Below, in pieces: positions 5,750 through 53,322 of a stretch of DNA of 64,000 nt (position 1 is its first letter; every line of letters begins with the position of its first letter). The translations under genes were made by a program, and so were the position numbers. Below the pieces are notes generated by a model. The model was not told the origin of the DNA. It was given only the letters and a program-made list of their open reading frames with translations, and did not search any database. The stretch comes from a virus. The DNA lies in IMG/VR virus record IMGVR_UViG_3300048818_000054, positions 20,451 to 84,450 of that record. One strand, 5' to 3'.

Positions 5750-6715
5750 GCTATACTTTCCGAGCAAAGCCACTAATTCTTGTTCGGTCATTTCTCCGGG
5801 GTCTTTGCGGTGAAGCGGGGGTTTCAAGTGCGTGATGACGTGATCTTGGCCGATCAATTGGCCGATCTTCTTACGCCCCGCATCGCCACCCTTTCCGCGA
5901 TCAAACAGCGTGAACCATTCGAGCGCGTCACCCATGCGTTTCAACTTTTCCTTGCTGGGCGTCGCGAATAGTGGACTGACGACATTATCATAAACTCGCG
6001 CACAAGAGAGCACGTCAAACGGACCTTCCACAACCAAGATAGGGCGGTCACGATCTACCCAACTTTCTCCGAACCAAACGATCGGATTGTTCTTCTCAGC
6101 ATGGGTGTACATGCGATAGCGGGGCTCCGTGGACGCGTCTACAGCGCGACCATGTAGGCCGACAAGCTGGCCTTCAAAGTCCCGTATGGGGAAGCATACG
6201 CGGCGCTGCGCGGTATCGGCTTTTATATCGAGCACGTCCGCTAGTTCGGGTGGCACGTTGCGCTCTTTTAGGTAGTCAACCGCGAACGGGACGTGCCGCC
6301 AGCCGGGGAAGCTGTAGAGCCACCATGTCGGAAAAACGTGTACACCCTTCGGACTGTGGAACAGCGTGTCTTCCTCAGTCGGATGATCGAAGCCTACGGA
6401 CACGGCGGCCTCGGCGTCGAGTATCAATTGAAGCGCTTGGCCCCAATGCACGTTGACATGTGCAGCCTTCTTGCTGCGGTAGCGCATGTCCAAAACAAGG
6501 TCGGTCATTGAGCCGTGCCAGTCGCACGCGAAGCAATCTGTGTGGGCGTCGCCGGGCTCTATCACGGCGGCGAAGGCCGGCTTCTTGTCGGTACCTTGAT
6601 CGTGCGTCCACGGCGCGAGCGGACAGGATGACACGATGCGACCGGGGCGCGTCTGCGTCTGAGGAACCTTCGCGCCAATGAACGCGAGGAAAACGCGCGT
6701 CTGCTCTTTGTTCAT
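5735..6715 (-). CDS. DNA primase (Zn-binding + TOPRIM)
   Basis: CPLAPWTH...CFAC zinc domain, YLKERN, FPIRD, GRA, VVEGPFD, LFDRG..G. Confidence 0.88.
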   Translation of the reverse strand: MNKEQTRVFLAFIGAKVPQTQTRPGRIVSSCPLAPWTHDQGTDKKPAFAAVIEPGDAHTDCFACDWHGSMTDLVLDMRYRSKKAAHVNVHWGQALQLILDAEAAVSVGFDHPTEEDTLFHSPKGVHVFPTWWLYSFPGWRHVPFAVDYLKERNVPPELADVLDIKADTAQRRVCFPIRDFEGQLVGLHGRAVDASTEPRYRMYTHAEKNNPIVWFGESWVDRDRPILVVEGPFDVLSCARVYDNVVSPLFATPSKEKLKRMGDALEWFTLFDRGKGGDAGRKKIGQLIGQDHVITHLKPPLHRKDPGEMTEQELVALLGKYSLTIT

Positions 6716-19202: not shown

Positions 19203-20798
19203 TCAAATTCCGAGGTAAGGCAACCTTGGGATGACAGTATAGCCGGACGGGATAACCCCGGCAAAGGCCGTGTCACCGAAGTTCATGGTGATGGCACCGC
19301 CAGATGCCGTAAAGCCGGCCACGACCTTCCACGGTATCCCTTCGTCGAAGCCCGACATGCTGTAACCGCCGACTTCCGCGACAGGATCGGGTGGCGCGCT
19401 GCCATTCCAATCCGTGGCCTGCGTAATGTCCTTGTACCAAGCAAGACTGTTGACTACATCGATAGCGACTCCGAACCAGTCACCAGAGGTCGGAACAAAC
19501 GCGAACGCGTTGAACGCCGGACCCTTACTGCCGGCGTTCTCCACGACGTTATTGGTATTGTCGGCTGCTTCCGACTGATAGCTGTCCCAACCGGGCGCGC
19601 TCGCTGTCGAGAAAGCCGACGCGGCGAAACCAACGGCCGTGAGCGTGGCGGCCGTGCTTGCAAACGTCATCTTGAACTCGAAATAATACTTGCCACCCGC
19701 GAGGGATGGGGTGCCAAGAACGCTGCCCGTGAGAGAGGCCGTAGCAATCAAGTCGCCGCCGCTCAGAGTGACGTTCGTTGATTTGTTGGCCGGATCAAGG
19801 GTGATGGGGGCAGGCGTCGAGTAAGCCGGCGCGTCGAACGTCTGAGCGCTGCCAGACGTGTAATTGACGCCGCTGTTCGCGTGCCAAGCCGTCGTGTAAT
19901 GCACGCCATCATCTGAGGATTGCACATAGAAATTATTCGGACATTGCGGATAGTTGCCGCCGTCCGAGCGCGACGTAAGGACCACGCTAGAGCACTCAAC
20001 CGGGCTCCCGCCATAGTTGATGCCGAGCACCTGACCGGTGTTGCCGTCCGAGGCGGACCATAGCGTTCCGCTGTTGCCGTCGAAAGCTTGATCGGCGTCA
20101 TAGGTCGGCGTCGCGTAGGCTTCGGTAGAAAAGTGAGTTCCAACGCCCGTGCTCGTATCGGTGACGCCAGAATAGAACTGAATTTCTTGGAACGCGAAGG
20201 CGGTGTTGCCTTGGTTTTGCAGCATGGCGATTTGCCAATACTGATGCGAGCCCCAAGGCGATACGGACCAAGCAGGGAAGCTCCACGCCACATTGGAGAA
20301 TTGTTGGATATGCGTGGCCTTGGCCCACGGGATGTAAGTCACCGCCGACCAAGCGTTGGTCCAAGACGATCCGTCATCCGACCATTCGACTTCGAAGCCG
20401 GTCGGCATTCCGGAGTAATTGTTATAGTCCGCGCAAAGCGTAACCACGTCCACGATGGCGGTCTTACCGGACCCGCAGTCTATGCCGAGCCACGCGCCGG
20501 AAACCGCGACCTCCCACGGATTGCTGATCGCGCTATCGTAATTGCCATCGAAAGCGAGAGAGCCGACATTGCTGCCGACGTGGCTGCTTTCCAGATAGGT
20601 GCCACCCGGCCCGGAAACCGTGTCCGCCAGATTGACGGCGTTGAACGATCCGTACGGGCCGACAAACTCGGCCTGCTTGATATAGAAGTCCCCGCCCGAA
20701 CCAGCGCCGACAAAGTTCGCGATGCGCCAATAACGATGCCCCGTGGGCGCGCCGCCGCCTGAAGACTTGTGCGCGATGCACGCTAGCAGTTGCTTCAT
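19203..20798 (-). CDS. tail fibre/receptor-binding protein (two discoidin F5/8-like modules + SPRY/ConA-like domain)
   Basis: Repeated AFDG...W...L.I...P..F.V..SDDG..W; TLDP...LSGGDL...GKYYFE...GVAID. Confidence 0.7.
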   Translation of the reverse strand: MKQLLACIAHKSSGGGAPTGHRYWRIANFVGAGSGGDFYIKQAEFVGPYGSFNAVNLADTVSGPGGTYLESSHVGSNVGSLAFDGNYDSAISNPWEVAVSGAWLGIDCGSGKTAIVDVVTLCADYNNYSGMPTGFEVEWSDDGSSWTNAWSAVTYIPWAKATHIQQFSNVAWSFPAWSVSPWGSHQYWQIAMLQNQGNTAFAFQEIQFYSGVTDTSTGVGTHFSTEAYATPTYDADQAFDGNSGTLWSASDGNTGQVLGINYGGSPVECSSVVLTSRSDGGNYPQCPNNFYVQSSDDGVHYTTAWHANSGVNYTSGSAQTFDAPAYSTPAPITLDPANKSTNVTLSGGDLIATASLTGSVLGTPSLAGGKYYFEFKMTFASTAATLTAVGFAASAFSTASAPGWDSYQSEAADNTNNVVENAGSKGPAFNAFAFVPTSGDWFGVAIDVVNSLAWYKDITQATDWNGSAPPDPVAEVGGYSMSGFDEGIPWKVVAGFTASGGAITMNFGDTAFAGVIPSGYTVIPRLPYLGI

Positions 20799-42300: not shown

Positions 42301-43302
42301 TCAAACCGTGGCGATGTTCTCGTACTGCACGATGGCGTCGCTCTCTTCGATATTGAAGGCGATACGCGCCGTCAACACGATGATGTAAACGCGCTCCGTG
42401 ATATCCTTGTCGAATTCCATGGACACCTGACGCTGAATGCCGAAAATCAGGTTCAGCGGGTCGGTGAACAGGCCCTCGGACTCAGGCATAAGAGCGACCG
42501 GGACCACGGGCGAACCGTAGGCGAAGGTCGGGCTCGTGCCCTGCGTCATCTGGTCGCCCAGCGCCGTTGCGCGGTCGGACAGCGTGTCGCGGTATTCCGT
42601 CTCGTTATTGACCGAGACGAAATGGTTCAGCGCGGGCTTGTTGCGCTGATACTGCGACGGCATGGTCTTCAAGCCCTGCTTGAAGATGGCCTTGCTGATC
42701 GACTGGCTGTTGGCGTTGAACACGTTGCCGGACGTGCTGGCGATATTGAGCCAGCCGGCGAACTGGCTGAGATAAGCCTGATCGTCTGTATCGGCGGCGT
42801 TCGTGTAGGCGGTATACGCAAGCAGGCCAAGCTCTTCCATGTCCAGCGCGGCGCGCTCGGCAATCAAGTCAATGATCGTCTGGCGCAGCCCGGCCGGGCC
42901 GGTGTTGGGCAATTCGTTCGTCGCCGTCGTGGCGCGCTCGATATTGTCCTCCATCACGTCGTACGGGATGTTGACCTGAGCGATCTGCTCCTTGGTCGTC
43001 AACTCGATCTGCGACGTGGTGGGCTTGGCGCGGCCGTCGAGAGCCGTGCTGTTGGAACCGTTCGCCGTAAGAGCAACGGCCGACGTGGCGGCGCGCAAGA
43101 TGCGCGAGCCGAAGCCGATCTTGTTGATCTTGCGGATGGGAGCAACCATTTCGACCACGCGGCAGAGCCGAATGAGCGTGGGCTGCTTGATAAGTTTGCG
43201 GATGAAGGCCGCGCCCTGTTCGGGGCTCAGTTCACCGCCGTTGCTGGCGAGGTCCGCGATGGCGAGATCGGCCTTGCGGAGCAGGCTGCTGTTGCTGGAC
43301 AT
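42301..43302 (-). CDS. major capsid protein (HK97 fold)
   Basis: LLRKADL...GGELSPEQ...FI, DVMEDNIE, NLIFGIQR...EFDKDI. Confidence 0.9.
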   Translation of the reverse strand: MSSNSSLLRKADLAIADLASNGGELSPEQGAAFIRKLIKQPTLIRLCRVVEMVAPIRKINKIGFGSRILRAATSAVALTANGSNSTALDGRAKPTTSQIELTTKEQIAQVNIPYDVMEDNIERATTATNELPNTGPAGLRQTIIDLIAERAALDMEELGLLAYTAYTNAADTDDQAYLSQFAGWLNIASTSGNVFNANSQSISKAIFKQGLKTMPSQYQRNKPALNHFVSVNNETEYRDTLSDRATALGDQMTQGTSPTFAYGSPVVPVALMPESEGLFTDPLNLIFGIQRQVSMEFDKDITERVYIIVLTARIAFNIEESDAIVQYENIATV

Positions 43303-43343: not shown

Positions 43344-45293
43344 TCACGCGCGGCGGGAAAATCCCGTATCCATGAGGGGCGGAGCGTTGTCGGCGGTCTT
43401 GGCGAAAGCCACAACCACGTCATCGTTCGCCTCCCCGAACACGGTCCCGAGTAGGGCCGCGTCGTGTTTCTTCACCGAGCCGACCACTTCGTCCACCCGG
43501 CTTCCTAGGGCCGATACGTCCTTCTTCACGCCAGCCAGACCGTCTTTCACGTCCTTGCTGAGCGCGGCGACGGCCTGCATGATCGCGCCGTTCTCTGACT
43601 TGAGGGTCTGAACGTCGTTTTCCTGCGCGCCTGCGCCAGACAACCCGTCTGAGAGTTGCTGTTCTTTGTTCTTTCCCTTCTTGCCGGCGTCATCGTCGCC
43701 CGCGTTCTTGGTCGTCGGGGAAAGCATCTTCGCGGGAATGCCAGCGGTATCGAGCGTGGCTCCCTTGACTTTGCCGGTGACTTTGCCGCCAGCGTTCTTG
43801 GCGTCGTCAGCCGTGGCGCGCGCCTGAGCCGCGAGGCTATCTTCGTCCGTGCTGGTCCCGGCACCCGCGCCATCGGCACCTTCGCCGGTGACAAGAATGC
43901 TCGTAACATCAACGGTATGCGCGTCCTTGACGACTACCGTGTTCTTGACGGCCGCGAGGTCGAGTTCGGCTTTGGTAAGCGCGGCCTTGGCCTCTTCAAC
44001 CTTCTGGGTGGAAGCCATCAACTTGGGATTGAGGCCCGTGGTCGCGCCGATCGTGCGAGCGTCGCCATCGTCGGCGTTCTCATTGCGGTTCGTCGCGGCG
44101 CGCGCGGCGTCATTGGCGTCTTTCCAGACCTTCACGTCGGCGGCGCTCTTGGCGAGGATCGCCTTGACCGCATCATAAATGCCCTGCGCGAGGTCGGTCT
44201 TGCCGACCGCAACCAAGTCGGCAGCGGTCTTGCACATGGCGGTCGCCTCTACTTCGGCTTTCTGCGTGGAGGCCATAAGCTCGGCGGGCATCCCGGTATC
44301 GGTGCCCGAGGTCTTGCCCCCTAACTTGCCGCCCGGAATGGCGTTGATGGCGGTGTTCGACGCATCGTCGGCGGTCGCCGCAGCGTTCGTCTCCGTGCCA
44401 GCGCCGAGTTCCGCGCCAGCGCCCGTGCCGTTCAGGCCGGCGTCGGCCTTCGCAACTTGGGTATTGCCGGGGGTCTTCTCCGGGATAAGCGGGTCTTTGC
44501 CGGCAACGGCCGTAGCCATGTCGCCGCCGCCGAGGTCGCCTTCACCCTTCGCGATCTTGCCCTTCTCAAACTTACCGGGGCCGGTCTCCTGATCGCCGCC
44601 AGCCCCGCCTTCGGCGTTGCCGGTGCCGGTCTTCTTGAGTTCGGCCTTGCGAAGCGCTTGGTCGAACTTGAAGGCCGAGACGGGAACCGCCTTGGTCAGG
44701 GTCATGATGTAGGCTTTGAAGTCGTCAACGGCCTTCGAAATGCCGACTGCGGCGGCGGTCGGGTCGGCCGCGTCCTGAAGCACGTTGCTGACCACCGATC
44801 CGAGGGCCTGAGCCGCGCCGGACAGCGACATGACATACGAGCTTGTAGCGACGTTTTCGCCAAAGTCGGACGAATTGAAATCGTACTCGCAAAAGCCTTT
44901 CTTGAGGCCCGAAATCCCGAGCGCCACGTCCTTGCTGACCTTCAGCATCATCGTGTCTGCCGGGTTGACGCCGCTCTTCAGCGTATAGACCGTCATGCCC
45001 TTGATCTCGCCCTTCAGAAGGGGCTCGAAGTCAACGCCGGCCGCCTTCAGCATGGCGATGATGGCGTCCTCATTGGCGGCCTTCGTCATGTAGACGCCGA
45101 CCACGGCGGGAGCAACCACGGTGCCACCGTCGCCCTTGAGAACGGTCTTCTTGAGCAAGCTATAGAGGTCCATGTCTGCGTCCTCGCTTTTGGTCAATCG
45201 AAACGGTATGCGGTTCGCACCCCGTTTGACCAACGCAATGAAATTCACGTCCGTATCGGTCAGTTCTGTCGCGTTAATTTCGAACTTGGGCAT
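43344..45293 (-). CDS. scaffold/internal core protein
   Basis: Between protease and MCP; VNFIALVKRGANRIPFRLTK N-terminus; low-complexity repeats. Confidence 0.65.
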   Translation of the reverse strand: MPKFEINATELTDTDVNFIALVKRGANRIPFRLTKSEDADMDLYSLLKKTVLKGDGGTVVAPAVVGVYMTKAANEDAIIAMLKAAGVDFEPLLKGEIKGMTVYTLKSGVNPADTMMLKVSKDVALGISGLKKGFCEYDFNSSDFGENVATSSYVMSLSGAAQALGSVVSNVLQDAADPTAAAVGISKAVDDFKAYIMTLTKAVPVSAFKFDQALRKAELKKTGTGNAEGGAGGDQETGPGKFEKGKIAKGEGDLGGGDMATAVAGKDPLIPEKTPGNTQVAKADAGLNGTGAGAELGAGTETNAAATADDASNTAINAIPGGKLGGKTSGTDTGMPAELMASTQKAEVEATAMCKTAADLVAVGKTDLAQGIYDAVKAILAKSAADVKVWKDANDAARAATNRNENADDGDARTIGATTGLNPKLMASTQKVEEAKAALTKAELDLAAVKNTVVVKDAHTVDVTSILVTGEGADGAGAGTSTDEDSLAAQARATADDAKNAGGKVTGKVKGATLDTAGIPAKMLSPTTKNAGDDDAGKKGKNKEQQLSDGLSGAGAQENDVQTLKSENGAIMQAVAALSKDVKDGLAGVKKDVSALGSRVDEVVGSVKKHDAALLGTVFGEANDDVVVAFAKTADNAPPLMDTGFSRRA

Positions 45294-46008
45294 CCAAAAT
45301 TCCCTCGACAAACGAGAACCGGTGACAATGCGGCGGGTTGCCCGCCATTTCCGTTACCGTCCCGCGCTCGATCTTGTGAATGTGGCCGTCGCGAGCGTTG
45401 CCCGTCTTGCCACCAAGAAAGAACCCGGTCGGGTCATACTTGACGAAAAACTGGTGCCGGTGCCCTTGCACTTCGTCAGTCTCGCCTTTGAGCAAATCCG
45501 GCATTTCGATCGAAAACACGGTGTCTGTTCGGACACCCATGCCATCAAGCGAAAAACCGTTCAACTCGCCCGACTTGACCATTTTCCAAATGGCGGCGTC
45601 GGGAACGTGCGCTCCAATCACCCAGCTATCGGCTAGGAAAATCGGGTCGCCTTCGCGAGCGATGAAGCTTTCGACGATGCACGAACCGGACGGCACCTGA
45701 GAATGGTTCACGTCCACATTCTTCAAAAGGCCCTTGGACATGAAGTTGTACGCCATCTTCTTGACTTGCACGGCGGACATGAAGTCCCCTTGCGAGTCCG
45801 GAAAACCCGGCGCGTAAACCTCGCCAAAGACGGTCTGCTCTTCGTCATCTAGCTTCTTGATAAGGATTTGATTGATTTCCGGCACTGTTTTGAGGACGCG
45901 GCTTGCCATGAACGATAGATCGTCCGTCGCCAGCTTCATCAACCTAACTCGGTCGGCCACCACTTTATCCTCACCACTGGTCACCCAGCGAATGATGAAG
46001 ATTGGCAC
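45274..46008 (-). CDS. XkdF-like prohead serine protease
   Basis: VFGEVYAP..PDSQGD, DVNH, IVESFI, GELNGFS. Confidence 0.85.
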   Translation of the reverse strand: MPIFIIRWVTSGEDKVVADRVRLMKLATDDLSFMASRVLKTVPEINQILIKKLDDEEQTVFGEVYAPGFPDSQGDFMSAVQVKKMAYNFMSKGLLKNVDVNHSQVPSGSCIVESFIAREGDPIFLADSWVIGAHVPDAAIWKMVKSGELNGFSLDGMGVRTDTVFSIEMPDLLKGETDEVQGHRHQFFVKYDPTGFFLGGKTGNARDGHIHKIERGTVTEMAGNPPHCHRFSFVEGILDAQVRN

Positions 46009-46034: not shown

Positions 46035-46048
46035 TGCAACTAGTTGCA
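46035..46048. repeat. palindrome TGCAACTAGTTGCA, copy 7
   Basis: Upstream of the prohead protease. Confidence 0.9.
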
Positions 46049-46077: not shown

Positions 46078-48054
46078 TCAAATTCGATCTATGGGTGCTC
46101 CGTCGTCATTCACGTTCTGAATGTCCGATATCGGGTTGCTTGAGTCAGGCTTTATGTCGTCATAGTCCTGCGAAAGCTGGCCTGCCGCGCTCTGCCTCTT
46201 GCCCTTCTTCTTGGGAGCATTCGGGGAACGGTCATCGTCGGACGGGTCTTCTTTCTCAACATTCTTGTCCTTGAAGTCATCAACGATCTTCTGAGCCTTG
46301 TCATAATCGCCAGCGGTGAAAGCGTCGTCAGCCTCCTTGAACATGGACGGGTCGGTTATCTCGAAGCGTGCCCACATGAGCGTGTCAATCTCGCTTTCGC
46401 TCCAATCTTTCGCTGTTTCAGCATCCGTTGAAATGGCGTCATCTGGTGAAGTCTCCGCGATGGCGAGCGCTGCATCGTAATCGCCGTCGTCATAGGCGGA
46501 CTGCGCGCTGTCCTTCAAATCCCCGTCGTCAAGGTCTTCAATCGCGCCTTGCAGAGCTTCGGTCTTCGCGTCATCGTCCCACCCGGCTAGGTCTTCGGCG
46601 TCAACTTCATCGCCTTCGACACCCAATGCAGCAACTCCATCCAGCAAATCACTAACAAGGTCTTCTCCCTCTTCGGAAAGCTCACCGGGCTCTTTCGTGC
46701 TGGCCGGAACCAACATGCCACGGCAGTTCGGGTGATAGGGCGGCGAGCCGTAGCCGGCCGCCTGTAGTTCATCTGGCGTCATGCCGGCGAGGTCTTCGAG
46801 GTCAGGCCATGGTGCCATGGACGCCAACTCGTCGGGGTCGGACGTGCCCAACGTTTGCATGAGCCGGCCGCTCTGCTCGGCAACGTCGAACTGCATCCCG
46901 TCCATGTACTGGCAAACGTCGCACGTCTTGTCGTCAAGAATTTCGCTGACCTCATAGGTGGTTGAGCCTTCGTCCGACGCCTGAGACAGGAAGCCCAGCG
47001 ATATGAGACGCGAGGTAGTGAGACCGGCCTGCGTGTCGATTGGCACGGTCCCGCCGCTGGCTACAGCCGCATTAAGCTGGTCTGCAAGCGTCTCAAGTGC
47101 CGCCTCGGCCTTAATCAAGTCCTCTTCACGCACCTGATAAGTGCCGTTGTAATTGCGGACCATGCGGACAGGTAGCAATCGATATAGGGTCGCAATGTCG
47201 CGGTTGCGGAGCGCCTGTAAGGCGTACTCTTTGTCTGACTGGTCACGGATGCGATCGATGGCGTCGTGCCACGCGAGCACTTCGGCCGAGGTCATGCCTT
47301 CGTTGTCTTCGTCCTCGGCCTTCAGCACGTCCTCTTCAAGGTCATCCTGCCAGTCTGTATTGATCTCTTGGAAAATCTCAGGGCCGAATTCGAGCGGGCC
47401 GTCATAAGCCTTGATGGCGGACAGGTCCAAGTCTTCAGGCGCAGCATAGGTGATGGTGACGTGGGACTGGTAAGGTACGAAGCTATGATGGCAGCCCAGC
47501 ACGCGCAGATACGAATGCCGCCTAATCAGGTCCGCGTTTTGGAACGTCATCACGACCGCATCCCCGAACTGCTCAATGGTTCGGTTTTCCGTGTCATAGG
47601 CGAACAGGTGACCTGAGCCGCCCTCGCCCATGTTCTCCCAATCCACCGGGTCTTTCGAATAGACGACGGTGACGTGCATGTCATCGGCGGGGAGCGTGCT
47701 CGTAAATCCAGCCTCTTTCGCCCAAGCAAGCAGAGGTTCTGTGTTCACAAGGTCTCGACGGATGTAAAGCGTCTTGTCAAATTTCTTGAGCTTGCGCTTC
47801 CGCTTGTAGGGGGCCTGCTTCTGCTCGGGCTCGGCAAGGCCGCCCGTCACCGCTAGCGACACCGAGCTTATGTCATCTTTTTTGAGTTCTTTTTTTTTAG
47901 CTTTGGGCATGTCGGGAAGGCGCGCGAGCGCGGCCGATGAAGTGTCTTCGGTTTTGTCGAGCAGACGACGGTATTCAACGGCCGCAGCCGTCTGAACCGG
48001 GTCATCCTTCAGTTTTGACAAAATCGCCGCGATTTCCACGTTTCCATACCTCAC
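46078..48054 (-). CDS. fusion: Acb1-like 2H phosphoesterase + MuF/gp7-like head morphogenesis domain
   Basis: TLYIRR...MHVTVVYS...SHVTITY...FGPEIF (two HxT motifs); LDDKTCDVC...PPYHPNCRG (MuF). Confidence 0.85.
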   Translation of the reverse strand: MRYGNVEIAAILSKLKDDPVQTAAAVEYRRLLDKTEDTSSAALARLPDMPKAKKKELKKDDISSVSLAVTGGLAEPEQKQAPYKRKRKLKKFDKTLYIRRDLVNTEPLLAWAKEAGFTSTLPADDMHVTVVYSKDPVDWENMGEGGSGHLFAYDTENRTIEQFGDAVVMTFQNADLIRRHSYLRVLGCHHSFVPYQSHVTITYAAPEDLDLSAIKAYDGPLEFGPEIFQEINTDWQDDLEEDVLKAEDEDNEGMTSAEVLAWHDAIDRIRDQSDKEYALQALRNRDIATLYRLLPVRMVRNYNGTYQVREEDLIKAEAALETLADQLNAAVASGGTVPIDTQAGLTTSRLISLGFLSQASDEGSTTYEVSEILDDKTCDVCQYMDGMQFDVAEQSGRLMQTLGTSDPDELASMAPWPDLEDLAGMTPDELQAAGYGSPPYHPNCRGMLVPASTKEPGELSEEGEDLVSDLLDGVAALGVEGDEVDAEDLAGWDDDAKTEALQGAIEDLDDGDLKDSAQSAYDDGDYDAALAIAETSPDDAISTDAETAKDWSESEIDTLMWARFEITDPSMFKEADDAFTAGDYDKAQKIVDDFKDKNVEKEDPSDDDRSPNAPKKKGKRQSAAGQLSQDYDDIKPDSSNPISDIQNVNDDGAPIDRI

Positions 48055-49180
48055 TCGAAGCCGTCATCCCGGACTTCGCCAGACCGTCAAACGCCGCACG
48101 GGGCTTGTCCCCATAGGCAGCAACCACATTGGGCGGGATGTAGCGCCCGGTCGCGAAATAGCGCTCTATGACCGAAGTTGCCGACGTTGCGTGTGACACG
48201 TCAATCAATTTCACATGGACGGTGTAGCCCTGACTAACCAATTTCTGGGTGTCCTGCAACACCTTCTCCGGGCTGTCAATTCTGGGCCATACGATGTTAT
48301 CGCCGTTCGCCGTAGCGCGCGCAAGCACGTCGTCAGTGATCGCGCCGGCCTCTTCATGAACTGCCCGCGCGCCGAGGCCGCCAGAGAATTCCGGAAGCTT
48401 CTCCTTGGCAAGATCGTTGTCTATTTCGAGCGTGCCGGCCAAACGCAACGGTTCTGAGAACGTGCTCTTCCCAGCCCCCGGCAAGCCTAGGATGATGGTG
48501 GCCTCATGGCCTTGCACCCTGATCCCAATATCCTTGTTATAGAGGTCATCGGCTATGCTCTTCCGCAAACCTACGCGATCTTCGGTCGCCAGCAAGTAAG
48601 TCTCCGGAATGGCGTCGGCCAAGGTTTGCGCTCGCGTCAGACCAGCAACGATCTCTTCGTTGGTCATTTTGTCGGTGAAGGGGGTATAACTCTTCGCTTT
48701 CGGCGCAGCCGTCGCGCTCGCGCTGGCAAAGCGCCCACGTTCGTCATGGTTGCCGTTGAACTTCTGAAGCCGGGTGTGCCGCTCCGATTGGGCCGTGATG
48801 AAGTCGTGCAACTTCCGTGCCAGATAATCCCGTCCCTTGACCTCAACCGCATGGACAAGCTGGTCGATCGCGTTGTGAAGCTCTTGCGGAAGGGCCTTAC
48901 CTTTGGCGTATACCGTCGTCAGCAAGTCGCCGGTTTGATGGTGGGCTCCGAATAGCAACGCCGCCGTGGCAAGCTCTTCGATCTTAGGGCGCACGTTCGA
49001 CACAATGCCGACCAGCGACATACGCGCAACAATGCCTTGCGCCTCTGCGAATTTGCCTGCGCGTAGGAGAGGGTGAAGGTCTCCGACGATGCTGCGCGCC
49101 ACCTTGTCCCATTGCGCGCGCATCGCGGCGGCCATGGTCCGCTCGATAGCGAGGTAAGCTTGGGGCGCGGCGGTGCTCAC
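48002..49180 (-). CDS. fusion: MuF N-terminal-like helical region + zeta-toxin-like P-loop kinase
   Basis: GLPGAGKST, IDND.AK, VHEEA, GY.V.V..I.V...S..RYF.TGR.IP. Confidence 0.75.
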   Translation of the reverse strand: MSTAAPQAYLAIERTMAAAMRAQWDKVARSIVGDLHPLLRAGKFAEAQGIVARMSLVGIVSNVRPKIEELATAALLFGAHHQTGDLLTTVYAKGKALPQELHNAIDQLVHAVEVKGRDYLARKLHDFITAQSERHTRLQKFNGNHDERGRFASASATAAPKAKSYTPFTDKMTNEEIVAGLTRAQTLADAIPETYLLATEDRVGLRKSIADDLYNKDIGIRVQGHEATIILGLPGAGKSTFSEPLRLAGTLEIDNDLAKEKLPEFSGGLGARAVHEEAGAITDDVLARATANGDNIVWPRIDSPEKVLQDTQKLVSQGYTVHVKLIDVSHATSATSVIERYFATGRYIPPNVVAAYGDKPRAAFDGLAKSGMTASSEVWKRGNRGDFVKTEG

Positions 49181-50022
49181 GCCTTGGCTCGCAGCCGGTC
49201 CCGCGCATAGCGGATCGAAGCGGAGTCATTCGCTTGGTCAAGGTATTTGAGTTCGGCCCGACCGCCCGGATTGGCGCTCGCGGCGGCGTGCGCGTCGCGC
49301 CCTATGTACGTGAGTTCGGCGTCTGTCTTGTCATGGTAGGGGTGGTCATAGAGCAATCCAGACTGCTTGACCTTCGACTCCACCGTTTGCGTCTCCGATG
49401 AAAAACGGCCGTCCGGACCATGATTGTCATTGGACTTGCTAACCCCGGAGTTGGCTTGGCCGTAATTGAACTTGTCCTTCGGGGCGAAGGTGAAATTCTC
49501 GTCGTCTTCTAGGGACTGGCGCAGTTGCTCGGCCGCCAAATCCGCGTCTGATGCGGTTGTCCCATTGCCTACCGCGAAGCGCCCGCGTTCGTCGCGCGGC
49601 TGATCTTCGCTGCCTTTTTCCAGCTTGCCCTTGGCGTTGAAGCCGTCTGTCGCCTTCGAGCGGGTGTTGGCGTCCTTCGCCATATCGACGGCAGCGTTAT
49701 AGGACGCCTTGGCGGGCTCCGTCGCGCCGTTGCGGGCATGGTCACCGGCTCGGCTGAACGTGTCGGCGGCGACGCGCGCCGCGATCGACGCTGAGTGGTG
49801 AAGCGCGGCCACGTCGCTTGTCGGGTCATTGGCATAAATGGCGTTGCCTTGATTGGCGTGCCAGACGGCCATTTGCCCGTAGCGCTCGGCAGCCGCGTCG
49901 GCGCGGTCAGCCGTGGTATGCAACGGCTCTTCGTCCGTGCTCGGCATCGTGTACATGCCCTTGCCGGCCGCGAACGGGTTTGCGGCCTTGAACATGGGGA
50001 CCAAGCGGTTGAAGTAAGCCAT
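49177..50022 (-). CDS. putative virion internal protein with RDERGRF / NHGPDGRF motifs
   Basis: GAGG RBS before MAYFNRL. Confidence 0.65.
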   Translation of the reverse strand: MAYFNRLVPMFKAANPFAAGKGMYTMPSTDEEPLHTTADRADAAAERYGQMAVWHANQGNAIYANDPTSDVAALHHSASIAARVAADTFSRAGDHARNGATEPAKASYNAAVDMAKDANTRSKATDGFNAKGKLEKGSEDQPRDERGRFAVGNGTTASDADLAAEQLRQSLEDDENFTFAPKDKFNYGQANSGVSKSNDNHGPDGRFSSETQTVESKVKQSGLLYDHPYHDKTDAELTYIGRDAHAAASANPGGRAELKYLDQANDSASIRYARDRLRAKA

Positions 50023-50441: not shown

Positions 50442-51182
50442 TCACTGGTTCGTGTTGTCTTCATTGGCGGAATTCCCGCCCGAATTGTTGTACCCGGCCT
50501 GAGCCTCTGCAACGGCAGACGCGGCCTGCTCCTTCTGCGGATAAGAGCCGGTCACTTTCCCGGTCGGAAGGTGATGCGCGGCGAAGCCACCGGCCGGCAT
50601 GGCGACAACGTGGCCCACGGTCTTGCCGGTCTTCTTGTCCTGCATTTCGTTGACGTGTGGGTTGTCCTTGGGGTCTTTCATGGTCATTTGCGAGCGCATG
50701 TCCGCGCCCGACACCTGAGCGCCACTGTTATTCTGGCCGCCCGCGCCAGAGGTCGTGTCCTGAGAACTGGCCGCTGCCGTCTCGCCGCCATTGTTCATGG
50801 GCTCACCCTTTTTCACGCTCCAGTACTTCTCAGGGTCGGAGCCGGCCGCCACAAACTTTTCATGAATGCTGGCTAGCTTGCTCTGGGCGTCTTCTTTGCT
50901 TGGGAGTTGGGTAGCCATGGAGCCAGTTTTGTCGTGAGAGGCCATCCACTTACCAGACGGCAGCTTAGACACGTCGCCTACGCGCTTGCCGTCGCCGTCA
51001 TAGGAGCGGTGCGTCTCAACCGGGTTAGGATTGGCATCTGTCACCTTCGCGGTAACATCCTTCGACGTGAGCCCGCCACCGCTGCCCGAGCTAAAATTCC
51101 CGTCCGGGCCATGGTTTTCGTTGCCCTTCACCAAAGTTTCTTCGGCGGTCTTAACGAGGGCGATGCGATGAAGGAACGTCAT
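50442..51182 (-). CDS. putative virion internal protein with NHGPDGNF motif
   Basis: GAGG RBS before MTFLHRI. Confidence 0.6.
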   Translation of the reverse strand: MTFLHRIALVKTAEETLVKGNENHGPDGNFSSGSGGGLTSKDVTAKVTDANPNPVETHRSYDGDGKRVGDVSKLPSGKWMASHDKTGSMATQLPSKEDAQSKLASIHEKFVAAGSDPEKYWSVKKGEPMNNGGETAAASSQDTTSGAGGQNNSGAQVSGADMRSQMTMKDPKDNPHVNEMQDKKTGKTVGHVVAMPAGGFAAHHLPTGKVTGSYPQKEQAASAVAEAQAGYNNSGGNSANEDNTNQ

Positions 51183-51192
51183 GGCGGTATCC

Positions 51193-53268
51193 TCAATGCG
51201 TGTGATGGCCCAGCACGTCGAACGTGCAGGCGGTAAGCTCAGCAAGGCCGTCCGGGTCAAGGGACGGATCGACAAACATCAACTCGGTAGCCATCGCCAT
51301 GATACGGGCTTGTGACTCGCCGTCCATGCGCTGGAAATAGCCCATGGACTTGTTCAGTTGGACAAAATCACGTTTCCGAAGCGACTTCAATAGATCGTGG
51401 GCAAGCTCTAGGCCGGTAGCGGGCATTCCGTCGTCAGCCTTCTTGGCGTTTGACGCGGCGCTGGCATTGTTCCCGGCCGGCGTCTTGACCTTCGGTACCG
51501 GGATGGGGCCGGGCGACTTGCCGTTCTTACCGGGCGCGCCGGGCAGACGGCCCGCGCCGAGAGCCGGCGACACGGGTTGCGGGTTGATGGGTTTGATGGG
51601 CTGCTTGCCGGCCGCGCCGGCAGGACCGGCCGCTGCGCCCATGGGGCCTGCCGCTGCACCGCCAGCGCCCGCGACGGCAACGGCCGCCTTGACGCCACCC
51701 GGAATTTCCTTGATCTGCCCCGTGTCCGGATCGACGGCATGAGTGGTGCCGGGGGGAATGGGTTGCGGAGCGGGCGGCTGTATCTGGTCGGACAGCGTTT
51801 GCGCGTCCGGCGACACCTTCATCTTGATCCCGACGATCTCGTTGATGACCTCGATAATATCGGCCGGCTCGACTTGCTGCATGGTCGAAATGATCTCAAC
51901 GCCCTGAAGCTTGAGGGTCGCGTCTTCGATGACCAGAGGCTTCGATCGCAAGCAAAAGTCGTTAAACTTCATCGCCTTGAGCAACTTCATGGTGATGATC
52001 GTGTCGAAGTCATCGCGCTCCGGTTTGAACACCTGAGCCTCGGCAACCACGTACGAAGCGAAGGCGGTCGCGAAATTGTAGCTCTCGGCCTGCCCCATGA
52101 AGATGGGCGGCATACGGAAGGCGCGCAGCACGCGCTCAGTGCAGCGCTTGTCATAGTCCTCAAACATGCTGTCCTTGGTCCTGTCGCCACCGAAGCGCTC
52201 GACGGTGACGGTCGCCTTGGGCGGCCCGCCATCGGTTGAGCCGCCCGTGGGCTCGACCTCTAGGACTTGGACATGGTTGTTCTTGGCGGCCGATCCGGCA
52301 TTCATGCGCTGGATCGCCGCGCGGGTCTCGGCCTGAAGTGAGCCGCCCTGAAGGATAATCATGACCGGTGGAACGCCGCCGCGATTGAAGAATTCTAGGT
52401 TGAACTCTTCGGCCTTGCGCGAGCCGAGCACCGAGGGAAGCTGCGCTATCCAGCGCGGGATACCGTAGGGCGTATGGGAGTCCAAGATCACAATGAAGTG
52501 CATAATCTCCGTCGCGCGCATGTTCGCGGGAAGCTGTTGCCCCATGGGAGCCCAAACGGCGGTCTTCTTGTGTAGGTCACGGACCGAGCCGAAGTCCTTG
52601 AAATACATGAGCGACACGCCGTTCACAAGCTGGCAATACCGACGCTCGCGGGTCATAACATTCAGTGTCGTTTCCTTGCCTCCCCGGAAAACCTTCTGAG
52701 GAATAGACACGGCGTCATCAAGGCGCAGCATACGCATCATCTTGGCGTCAACGCGGCGAAACATGACAATTTCGTTCGACGCGTTTCGCAACACTTCAAT
52801 GAACCCGTTGCCGGTACGCTCAAGATCGCGGCGGAGCAAAGCGCGTATCTGGCGGAATGAAACGCCCGGCCACGGTTCGTCAAAGAATTCGTTCAGGGCG
52901 TCAATCTGCGTATCGTCGGCGTCATCGTCCGTCGTGTCGTCATCCTTGCTCTCGAAGGTGTAGCCGGTGCCTTCGCAATTGGTCACCATGGCCTCAATGC
53001 AAGGCGATAGGGTATTGTTTTCCTGACTCAATCGGTCAAGCGTGCGGAGCGAGAACGGAGGCTGGATAATGCCTTGGTCACGGGTCGCGCCGACGTAAAG
53101 TTGCTGGTATTCGTCTTCCGGCTCGAAGGCATTCGGCTGAACCGCGCCATCGGGATTGTTGCCACCATTCGGCCCCAAATCCTTGAGGATTTGCGTCGAG
53201 CGGTCCGCAGAGACCAAGCGAAAGATTTGAGCGGACGGTTTCGCGTCCTTCTTGATCTCGTCAACCAT
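51193..53268 (-). CDS. portal protein (PBSX-like) with long Pro/Ala/Gly-rich C-terminal extension
   Basis: PPFSL..L, RDLE.TGNGF.EV.RN, YGIPRW, FF.RGGVP, RAFRMPP..MG...YN.ATA. Confidence 0.92.
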   Translation of the reverse strand: MVDEIKKDAKPSAQIFRLVSADRSTQILKDLGPNGGNNPDGAVQPNAFEPEDEYQQLYVGATRDQGIIQPPFSLRTLDRLSQENNTLSPCIEAMVTNCEGTGYTFESKDDDTTDDDADDTQIDALNEFFDEPWPGVSFRQIRALLRRDLERTGNGFIEVLRNASNEIVMFRRVDAKMMRMLRLDDAVSIPQKVFRGGKETTLNVMTRERRYCQLVNGVSLMYFKDFGSVRDLHKKTAVWAPMGQQLPANMRATEIMHFIVILDSHTPYGIPRWIAQLPSVLGSRKAEEFNLEFFNRGGVPPVMIILQGGSLQAETRAAIQRMNAGSAAKNNHVQVLEVEPTGGSTDGGPPKATVTVERFGGDRTKDSMFEDYDKRCTERVLRAFRMPPIFMGQAESYNFATAFASYVVAEAQVFKPERDDFDTIITMKLLKAMKFNDFCLRSKPLVIEDATLKLQGVEIISTMQQVEPADIIEVINEIVGIKMKVSPDAQTLSDQIQPPAPQPIPPGTTHAVDPDTGQIKEIPGGVKAAVAVAGAGGAAAGPMGAAAGPAGAAGKQPIKPINPQPVSPALGAGRLPGAPGKNGKSPGPIPVPKVKTPAGNNASAASNAKKADDGMPATGLELAHDLLKSLRKRDFVQLNKSMGYFQRMDGESQARIMAMATELMFVDPSLDPDGLAELTACTFDVLGHHTH

Positions 53269-53308
53269 GGCTTCCTCGTCTTCGAAAACCAAATCTCAGA
53301 CCAAAGAT

Positions 53309-53322
53309 TGCAACTAGTTGCA
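53309..53322. repeat. palindrome TGCAACTAGTTGCA, copy 8
   Basis: Between DNA polymerase stop and portal start. Confidence 0.9.

Follow-up and report, generated by a model that had tools for sequence, protein, structure and literature searches.

The window analysed here is the whole stretch of 64,000 nucleotides (nt) that runs from position 20,451 to 84,450 of the IMG/VR virus record IMGVR_UViG_3300048818_000054, a genome of 99,945 bp rated 100% complete. Our subject is a pair of overlapping genes in its head module, of which the downstream one carries, in a single reading frame, an Acb1-family phosphodiesterase domain and the core of a MuF minor head protein, while the upstream one encodes an N-terminal MuF half and a zeta-toxin-like kinase. 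An enzyme of the Acb1 family would hydrolyse the 3'-5' cyclic di- and trinucleotide signals of bacterial defence systems of the CBASS type (cyclic-oligonucleotide-based antiphage signalling systems), and we explore here how such an enzyme may be carried by the phage head. The two genes are laid out as follows.

46078 to 48054, minus strand: gene for Acb1 and the MuF core, 658 amino acids (aa) from the first GTG (list of open reading frames, ORFs, and translation)
48002 to 49180, minus strand: upstream overlapping gene, 392 aa, N-terminal MuF half and zeta-toxin-like kinase (ORF list, Pfam)
48002 to 48054, minus strand: overlap of the two genes; the downstream gene is read in the +1 frame with respect to the upstream gene, and this frame has a stop at 48064-48066

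A sequence-only reading of this DNA had proposed that an Acb1-like enzyme is fused to a MuF head protein at 46078-48054, and the 658-aa minus-strand ORF is confirmed by both the ORF list and the translation. Translation more probably begins at the GTG at 48039, which is preceded by a GAGG at a distance of 9 nt; the product recorded in the database has 653 aa, five codons fewer, matching a start at this GTG, and the protein is probably 653 aa long. The overlap between the genes amounts to 38-53 nt.

The Acb1 domain

The assignment of the domain draws on family profiles, on individual residues and on the predicted fold. A match to the Acb1 profile, suggested by the sequence-only reading as a check, is present over the full length of Pfam PF23474 (positions 1-144 of 144) with E 3.6e-32 and a score of 111.5 bits, the cut-off being 27, and the stretch of about 140 aa originally claimed (47360-47772) falls within it. 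A profile search of the genome scores the domain at 115.6 bits, and no 2H family in Pfam other than Acb1 matches the window protein.

47341 to 47775, minus strand: Acb1-family 2H phosphodiesterase domain, aa 94-238 (Pfam PF23474, AlphaFold2 model)
47668 to 47676, minus strand: first catalytic HxT, H127-V-T129, equivalent to T4 Acb1 H44/T46 (T4 gp57B alignment; His invariant in 57 sequences)
47455 to 47463, minus strand: second catalytic HxT, H198-V-T200, equivalent to T4 Acb1 H113/T115 (T4 gp57B alignment; His invariant in 57 sequences)
47338 to 47355, minus strand: lid motif D234-W-Q-D-D-L239, equivalent to T4 D146-W147-A-D-D-L151 (alignment)

Residues were mapped by alignment with T4 gene 57B, using the numbering of Hobbs et al. 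(PMC9117128), and conservation was assessed in two alignments, one of 17 sequences (the protein and 16 homologues) and the other of 57 sequences for the Acb1 domain, in both of which the Acb1 motifs occupy invariant or nearly invariant columns. The two HVT motifs and their framing by TLYIRR (aa 95-100) and FGPEIF (aa 223-228), which had been noted in the sequence-only reading, are all found, and the sequence features claimed for the protein stand far above chance expectation. The stacking aromatics Y12, F107 and W147 of T4 correspond in the alignment to Y97, F192 and W235, with Y97 and W235 being invariant, and the conserved Glu E138 corresponds to E226. The C-terminal lid (T4 residues 145-152) is required for the activity of T4 Acb1 (bioRxiv 10.1101/2025.08.21.671373); here the lid motif is followed by an acidic linker predicted to be disordered, with a predicted local distance difference test (pLDDT) score <50 over aa 238-251.

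The domain shares 25-28% identity with T4 Acb1, and its AlphaFold2 model, built from the 57-sequence alignment, has a pLDDT of 92.5 and a predicted template modelling score (pTM) of 0.86. When this model is compared with the Protein Data Bank (PDB) by Foldseek, the first matches are 7t26 and 7t27, the Acb1 of phage FBB1 (E 2e-8, template modelling score (TM) 0.70-0.72), followed by 9q2y, the phage phosphodiesterase PDE-9 that prefers cyclic GMP-AMP (cGAMP), and then, clearly weaker, by Escherichia coli LigT. In a sequence search of the PDB the best match is the C-terminal ~150 residues of the portal of the cyanophage Pam3 (8hds, residues 467-619; E 2e-18). By sequence and predicted fold together, the domain is an Acb1-family 2H phosphodiesterase with its catalytic and lid residues intact.

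Set beside its known relatives, the domain shares with Acb1 itself (T4 gene 57B and Erwinia phage FBB1, 7T26/7T27) the 2H fold, the HxT/HxT tetrad, equivalents of Y12, F107, W147 and E138, and the DWxDDL lid, whereas T4 Acb1 stands alone at ~150 aa and the window domain is embedded in a head protein of 658 aa. The second-best structural match, PDE-9 of Burkholderia phage BCSR5 (9Q2Y/9Q2G; TM 0.70-0.72; bioRxiv 10.1101/2025.08.21.671373), is likewise a phage 2H enzyme that degrades 3'3'-cGAMP, but stands alone with an N-terminal lid, whereas the window domain keeps the C-terminal lid motif of the Acb1 type. The cultured phage Pam3 also has an Acb1-type domain on a head protein, its portal gp3 (8HDS), at the end that faces the capsid interior; there, however, the carrier is a portal and the domain terminal, whereas here the carrier is a MuF protein and the domain is inserted. 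A term search of the paper describing the Pam3 structure found no mention of this Acb1-like domain of the portal.

A MuF chain divided between two genes

The MuF part of the protein, its upstream partner and the segments that surround them are listed here.

46705 to 47142, minus strand: MuF core, aa 305-450, with CxxC (C378, C381) and PPYHPNCRG (H441, C444) (motif, PHROG, PF04233)
48761 to 49180, minus strand: N-terminal MuF half, aa 1-140 of the upstream protein, with an invariant LFGA motif (homologue alignment)
48728 to 48748, minus strand: HDERGRF linear motif at the end of the N-half, start of the cargo slot (sequence)
48032 to 48502, minus strand: zeta-toxin-like P-loop kinase, aa 227-383 of the upstream protein (Pfam PF06414)
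47776 to 48054, minus strand: N-terminal linker of the Acb1-MuF protein, aa 1-93, predicted disordered (pLDDT <50 over aa 1-86)
47155 to 47301, minus strand: three-helix insert, aa 252-300, between Acb1 and the MuF core (full-length model, alignment)
46252 to 46599, minus strand: acidic helical tail, aa 486-601 (pLDDT 89-96)
46081 to 46248, minus strand: disordered C-terminal tail, aa 603-658, ending ...YDDIKPDSS...NDDGAPIDRI (full-length model)

The CDVC (C378-C381) and PPYHPNCRG (aa 438-446) motifs do share a reading frame with the Acb1 domain, as had been claimed, and are invariant across the 17 homologues, as are the single residues C378, C381, H441, C444 and R445. We assign the core to MuF because of this signature motif, the matches of the protein to the head-morphogenesis and minor-head families of PHROG (E 1e-7 to 2e-11), the position of the gene, and the fact that Pfam PF04233 (Phage_Mu_F) is the sole Pfam family matched, in 14 of 16 members of the core family (best E 3.2e-7). 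It is a divergent MuF by these criteria, since this copy scores under Pfam's cut-off; when profiles are compared, only the last 28 columns align with those of a MuF that scores above it.

The order of N-half, Acb1 and MuF core is found in all 16 aligned homologues, and profile searches recover it in seven of nine further cluster representatives that have this MuF core, the N-half being undetectable in the other two and the reversed order never seen. All 16 aligned homologues start with a helical domain of ~135-140 aa that is absent from the Acb1-MuF protein of the window, and the N-half encoded by the upstream gene corresponds over its full length to the N-termini of 15 Acb1-MuF homologues (23-59% identity). 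As judged from these alignments, the usual architecture is N-half, variable slot, linker, Acb1, MuF core and tail. The claim of an in-frame fusion of Acb1 to MuF stands as regards the identity of the domains, their common frame and the head-module context; it has to be amended in that the MuF chain is here split across two genes, and the C-terminal position expected of a MuF-borne effector does not apply, Acb1 being inserted between the N-terminal half and the core in every relative examined.

In the phage of the window the variable slot is occupied by the kinase, which matches PF06414 with E 8.6e-14 and 51.9 bits against a cut-off of 22.3, and in which a Walker A sequence GLPGAGKST and an IDND motif are visible; a sequence search of the PDB gave no match for it. 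The closest relative, in a syntenic 91-kb phage contig (L003), is a single protein of 915 aa (P0004, encoded at L003:8001-10748), whose residues 4-155 are 57% identical to residues 6-154 of the upstream protein, and whose residues 370-912 match the window Acb1-MuF protein at 43% identity. Its aa ~156-430, in the slot held here by the kinase, form an insert of ~275 aa with a HEIGH motif (metallopeptidase-like), for which Pfam gave no match. By this comparison, the MuF chain of the window is cut after the zeta-like kinase that fills the first slot.

The split is real as far as the sequence record is concerned. A separate contig from the Joint Genome Institute (JGI) is 100% identical over 2,482 nt, and the gene junction is bridged, with 0 differences and 0 indels, by contigs from two other studies and by one contig from an RNA library; the identity at the junction of contigs from other studies makes an assembly error unlikely. 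The junction-spanning contig from the metatranscriptome library may derive from DNA carry-over and is no proof of transcription.

Structural prediction supports binding of the two halves to each other. The upstream N-half (aa 1-145) and the MuF core (aa 305-455) were co-folded, on alignments made for this analysis, in three runs, alongside three controls; the interface score (ipSAE) reached 0.82 in the three runs as against 0.22 for the best of the controls, and when the tool was calibrated its mark was passed by 58 of 80 solved complexes and by 2 of 110 mismatched pairs. Contacts agreed between runs to 88-96%, the partner pLDDT was >=77, and it is at the LFGA of the N-half and the LTTSRL..GFL of the core, both of them invariant, that the two chains touch most tightly. 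The two are thereby predicted to bind. K315 (in the sequence LIK-A), a Lys placed directly behind the Acb1 domain and invariant in the 17 homologues, lies outside this predicted interface.

The full-length model is poor (pTM 0.32) and was used for order and disorder only, domain packing being excluded. It borders the Acb1 domain with disordered segments (pLDDT <50 over aa 1-86 and aa 238-251), so that Acb1 is predicted to sit on flexible linkers. Within the N-terminal linker the stretch LKKD-DISxxxLAxTGGLxxPEQ is kept in most homologues; this part (LKKD-DISSVSLAVTGGLAEPEQ; 47821-47880, minus strand) resembles the N-terminus of the capsid protein (LLRK-ADLAIADLASNGGELSPEQ; 43243-43302, minus strand). 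The three-helix insert is absent from most relatives, a related insert being found in P0017. The acidic helical tail, which is kept in the relatives P0004, P0005 and P0007, contains two copies of a hairpin motif 'A.DAF..GDYD.A' that resembles the 'AG.W..A' segment of the MuF N-terminal half; a Pfam scan gave no family match for either the insert or the tail. The motif at the C-terminus, YDDIxPDSS...NDDxAP(I/L)D(R/K)(I/M) (46081-46140, minus strand), is found in L003 on a separate, overlapping ORF of 114 aa (L003:10735-11079), by sequence the second place at which a gene fission or fusion sets the two phages apart, and the scaffold-like protein of the window ends with DNAPPLMDT, which is loosely similar to it.

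Head proteins as carriers of Acb1 domains

The two genes belong to a minus-strand head module with the order DNA polymerase A, portal, three small ORFs, the 392-aa gene, Acb1-MuF, S78_2 protease, scaffold-like protein and major capsid protein, and in L003 too the MuF gene comes after the portal and ahead of the protease, scaffold and capsid genes.

51193 to 53292, minus strand: portal protein, at the head of the module (gene annotation)
45274 to 46008, minus strand: prohead protease (Peptidase_S78_2 / XkdF type), directly downstream of the Acb1-MuF gene (gene annotation)

Whether a head protein is a usual place for Acb1 can be judged from its relatives. A search with the Acb1 domain against 1.8 billion cluster representatives returned 1,761 clusters at E <=1e-3; among the best 142 of these, 10 proteins are no longer than 210 aa and ~93% have the domain embedded in larger proteins. 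Pfam scans of 88 of the best 142 Acb1-domain proteins gave the following partners.

Portal families: 44 of 88
MuF: 9 of 88
S78-type prohead proteases: 6 of 88
ADP-ribosyltransferases (ART): 5 of 88
PBECR3 nucleases: 4 of 88
DUF2213: 3 of 88
Topoisomerase IB: 2 of 88
Zeta toxin: 1 of 88

Among cultured phages, the portal or another head protein bears an Acb1-type domain in Rhizobium RHEph04-06, Pseudomonas phiPSA1, Synechococcus phages, Pseudanabaena Pam3, Sinorhizobium HMSP1-Susan and Roseobacter DSS3P8. One polypeptide combines a zeta-like kinase with Acb1 in two other metagenomic head proteins (P0085 and P0162), and the pairing of kinase and 2H domain recurs, by these sequences, independently of this phage. 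A search for related loci with the Acb1-MuF protein alone gave no relatives in viral contigs, the relatives described here coming from protein searches.

The general class has been foreseen. Fusions of 2H domains to MuF or portal are described in section 20 of Iyer et al. (2017; PMC5512222), where they are suggested to degrade nucleotides from nucleotide-activated defence systems, and zeta-kinase-MuF fusions are among those listed in the same survey; section 3.4.5 of Iyer et al. (2022; PMC9503650) takes such fusions to suggest head packaging and injection, countering SMODS (CBASS-type) and related signalling. Like the members of that class, the window protein comes from a portal-terminase phage, joins a 2H domain to MuF and has the same predicted role, whereas insertion between MuF halves, a split into two genes and non-covalent reassembly are not mentioned in the sections of these papers that treat the fusions. 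The phage also fits, on sequence and modelling, the head-packaged polyvalent effectors of Iyer et al. (2017), in which at least two effector domains are joined to a head-delivery domain, because kinase and Acb1 ride on the two halves of one MuF unit in the head module. The locus thus represents a class already predicted in print in 2017 and 2022, its unusual feature being the two-gene split MuF with a second enzyme. In our literature search no paper was found that ties Acb1 by name to MuF, minor head, portal or packaged fusions, and the terms 'fused', 'fusion' and 'portal' are absent from a 2025 survey of viral 2H phosphodiesterases; a literature search for phage BCSR5 gave no result.

As a MuF protein, the product resembles phage Mu gpF and SPP1 gp7 in its place between portal and protease, in the CxxC...PPxHPNCR signature and in the PHROG families matched; it differs from MuF-borne effectors in that the effector is internal and not C-terminal, the chain is in two pieces and the core lies under the Pfam cut-off. 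The T4 proteins Alt and IPI-III are packaged, processed by protease and injected. The likeness to them would lie in the proposed principle only, namely prohead loading, trimming by protease and ejection with the DNA; there is no sequence relation, and targeting would here be via MuF, whereas the T4 internal proteins use a short N-terminal leader. In T4, acb1 adjoins ipI.

Several further features of the module may be recorded. Three consecutive genes between the portal and the Acb1 gene contain, in all, four copies of a motif of the form NH(G/D)xxG(R/N)F or PRDExGRF (48728-48748, 49576-49593, 49402-49422 and 51093-51113, minus strand), and none of the other long frames of the window has it. 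A fuller form, (Y/F)xPxQPRDExGRW(T/A)xGGG, is present in 11 copies in 10 of 173 Acb1-bearing head proteins, as against 0.1 expected from shuffles, often at domain boundaries and after hydrophobic-x-Lys; the PRDExGR(W/F) motif may be a targeting or processing signal. The three small ORFs that follow the portal most likely start at internal ATGs (~51183-51150, 50431-50399 and 50022-49987, minus strand), from which they have similar leaders, MTFLHRIALVK-T, MAFFTKHPVIK-T and MAYFNRLVPMFK-A, with the L003 counterparts MSYFARMTVKK-T and MSWFGRMFKE-T (L003:6294-6330 and 6665-6700). By their sequence these look like the short capsid-targeting or protease-removed leaders of internal head proteins. A 14-bp palindrome, TGCAACTAGTTGCA, has eight exact copies, with none expected by chance; two copies bracket the block from portal to MuF, one just upstream of the portal start (53309-53322) and the other (46035-46048) within the 69 nt that separate the stop of the MuF gene from the start of the protease gene.

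The same DNA is present in peat and permafrost metagenomes, and the segment 47500-48600 of the window was found in 23 public runs (2018-2025), all labelled as peat or permafrost metagenomes, five of them being metatranscriptome libraries. The phage appears to be persistent in this habitat.

Proposed packaging with the DNA and the alternatives

On balance, we favour, as somewhat better than an even prospect, the view that the locus encodes a cyclic-oligonucleotide phosphodiesterase which is packaged on a two-piece MuF protein and probably released by a protease. The Acb1 domain, which lies between the halves of this divergent MuF minor head protein, would then be its cargo; the two overlapping genes are probably translationally coupled and the halves most likely reassemble non-covalently, such that a single unit would bring both kinase and Acb1 to the portal, inside the procapsid. 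Both enzymes may be freed at this point by the S78_2 prohead protease encoded next door. Should Acb1 be ejected together with the DNA, it could be active as soon as the next infection begins; late activity in the cell that produces the phage would be expected in either case. Pre-packaging and injection, already proposed in the sequence-only reading, are a reasonable inference because the fusion partners are mostly portal, MuF and prohead protease.

A number of points weigh against this view, or narrow it. Portals are not ejected, so that fusion to this commonest partner is no sign of injection in itself, except where the domain is released by cleavage; the capsid-like linker site and K315 could be sites of the prohead protease, which is conjecture. 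The core reaches 26.2 bits against PF04233 when taken alone, and 21.7 bits in the whole protein, as compared with a curated cut-off of 29.6. The score of the co-folded halves is the model's own confidence, obtained on alignments made for this analysis, and the pass in part reflects likeness, both chains being halves of one fold in relatives. Within the Acb1 domain, the position of T4 W74 is matched, with some uncertainty, by Y153, which stands in a variable loop with gaps in the alignment and no conservation among relatives, and E141, the Glu of T4 and FBB1 Acb1 that contacts the adenine N6, is replaced by Q229, with E230 next to it, in an alignment that is free of gaps between the anchors E138/E226 and W147/W235; five of eight other clade members aligned have Glu at this position. 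Since a Gln stands in place of the adenine-contacting Glu, the preference for substrate may differ, a point that bears on the base recognised and not on membership of the family. Our literature search found no experiment on the activity, packaging or ejection of any fused Acb1.

The first alternative is that the enzyme acts only late and in the cytoplasm, fusion to a head protein merely providing late and abundant expression with no delivery to the next host. The prevalence of portal fusions, which account for half of the nearest relatives scanned (44 of 88) and involve a protein that remains in the capsid, is in its favour, and a flexibly tethered enzyme can work before assembly; moreover, CBASS is often triggered late by structural proteins. 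However, the partners are almost only proteins of the procapsid interior (portal, MuF and prohead protease) and not of the tail or shell, which argues for packaging, and the partners of Acb1 co-occur with effectors that are classically injected (ART, PBECR nucleases and zeta kinases; Pfam scans of the 88 proteins and PMC5512222). We regard late action as unlikely to be the whole explanation, and the two can both hold, late action and packaging being compatible.

Less probable still is a role for the 2H domain on RNA or other nucleotides, whether in healing 2',3'-cyclic phosphate ends together with the kinase, as a Usb1-like RNase, or in degrading 2'-5' oligoadenylates. An RNase is the first option given for such domains in section 20 of Iyer et al. 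(2017; PMC5512222), the partner protein is a P-loop kinase (as again in P0085 and P0162), the PHROG label of the family is 'RNA ligase', and the Gln in place of the adenine-reading Glu could be read in the same sense. Against this, Acb1 is the sole 2H match in Pfam and the nearest structures are two phage cyclic-dinucleotide phosphodiesterases, with LigT clearly weaker; all ten Acb1 homologues assayed by Hobbs et al. cleaved both 3'3'-cGAMP and cyclic triadenylate (cA3) (PMC9117128); and the kinase is replaceable, the closest relative having a metallopeptidase-like insert in its slot. Neither an Rnl2-type ligase nor RtcB was found in the complete 99.9-kb genome, which also counts against a role on RNA; the search for T4 Rnl1 matched no control genome and is hence uninformative.

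Two other readings of the split, namely a defect (a frameshifted pseudogene) and recoding (+1 frameshifting in the overlap at 48005-48063 that yields a single chain of ~1040 aa with N-half, zeta, Acb1 and core), we consider very improbable: the relative with one continuous ORF of 915 aa, the overlapping frames and a downstream frame that is open for only four codons before its first start codon would allow it, but the sequence is identical, with no indel variants, in contigs of different studies and years, the GTG at 48039 is preceded by its ribosome-binding site, both ORFs are long and intact, the halves are predicted to bind as separate chains, and no +1 slippery motif is recognisable on reading the overlap.

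Returning to a packaged enzyme on a divided MuF, a wider but tentative extension, which we would not put above a minority chance, is that the MuF of this lineage is a modular loading device, which has three slots for cargo, one behind the N-half, one that separates Acb1 from the core and one behind the core, and which tolerates being cut into two polypeptides that reassemble. A portal-bound unit of this type would load several counter-defence enzymes, in this phage the zeta-like kinase and Acb1, and conserved hydrophobic-x-Lys together with (P/H)(R/G)DExGR(W/F) would mark the sites at which the protease releases them.

Whatever the route by which the enzyme acts, the locus is a clean test case, combining intact active-site and lid residues with flexible flanks; the naturally split MuF means that the halves can be expressed and pulled down separately, and the cultured phages with the domain in portal or head-morphogenesis proteins make a test on virions practical. 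If it is true that the fused Acb1 is packaged and ejected, phages would disarm cyclic-oligonucleotide immunity before the expression of any phage gene, and our view of the timing of the contest with CBASS would change accordingly; the idea itself dates, in print, from 2017.

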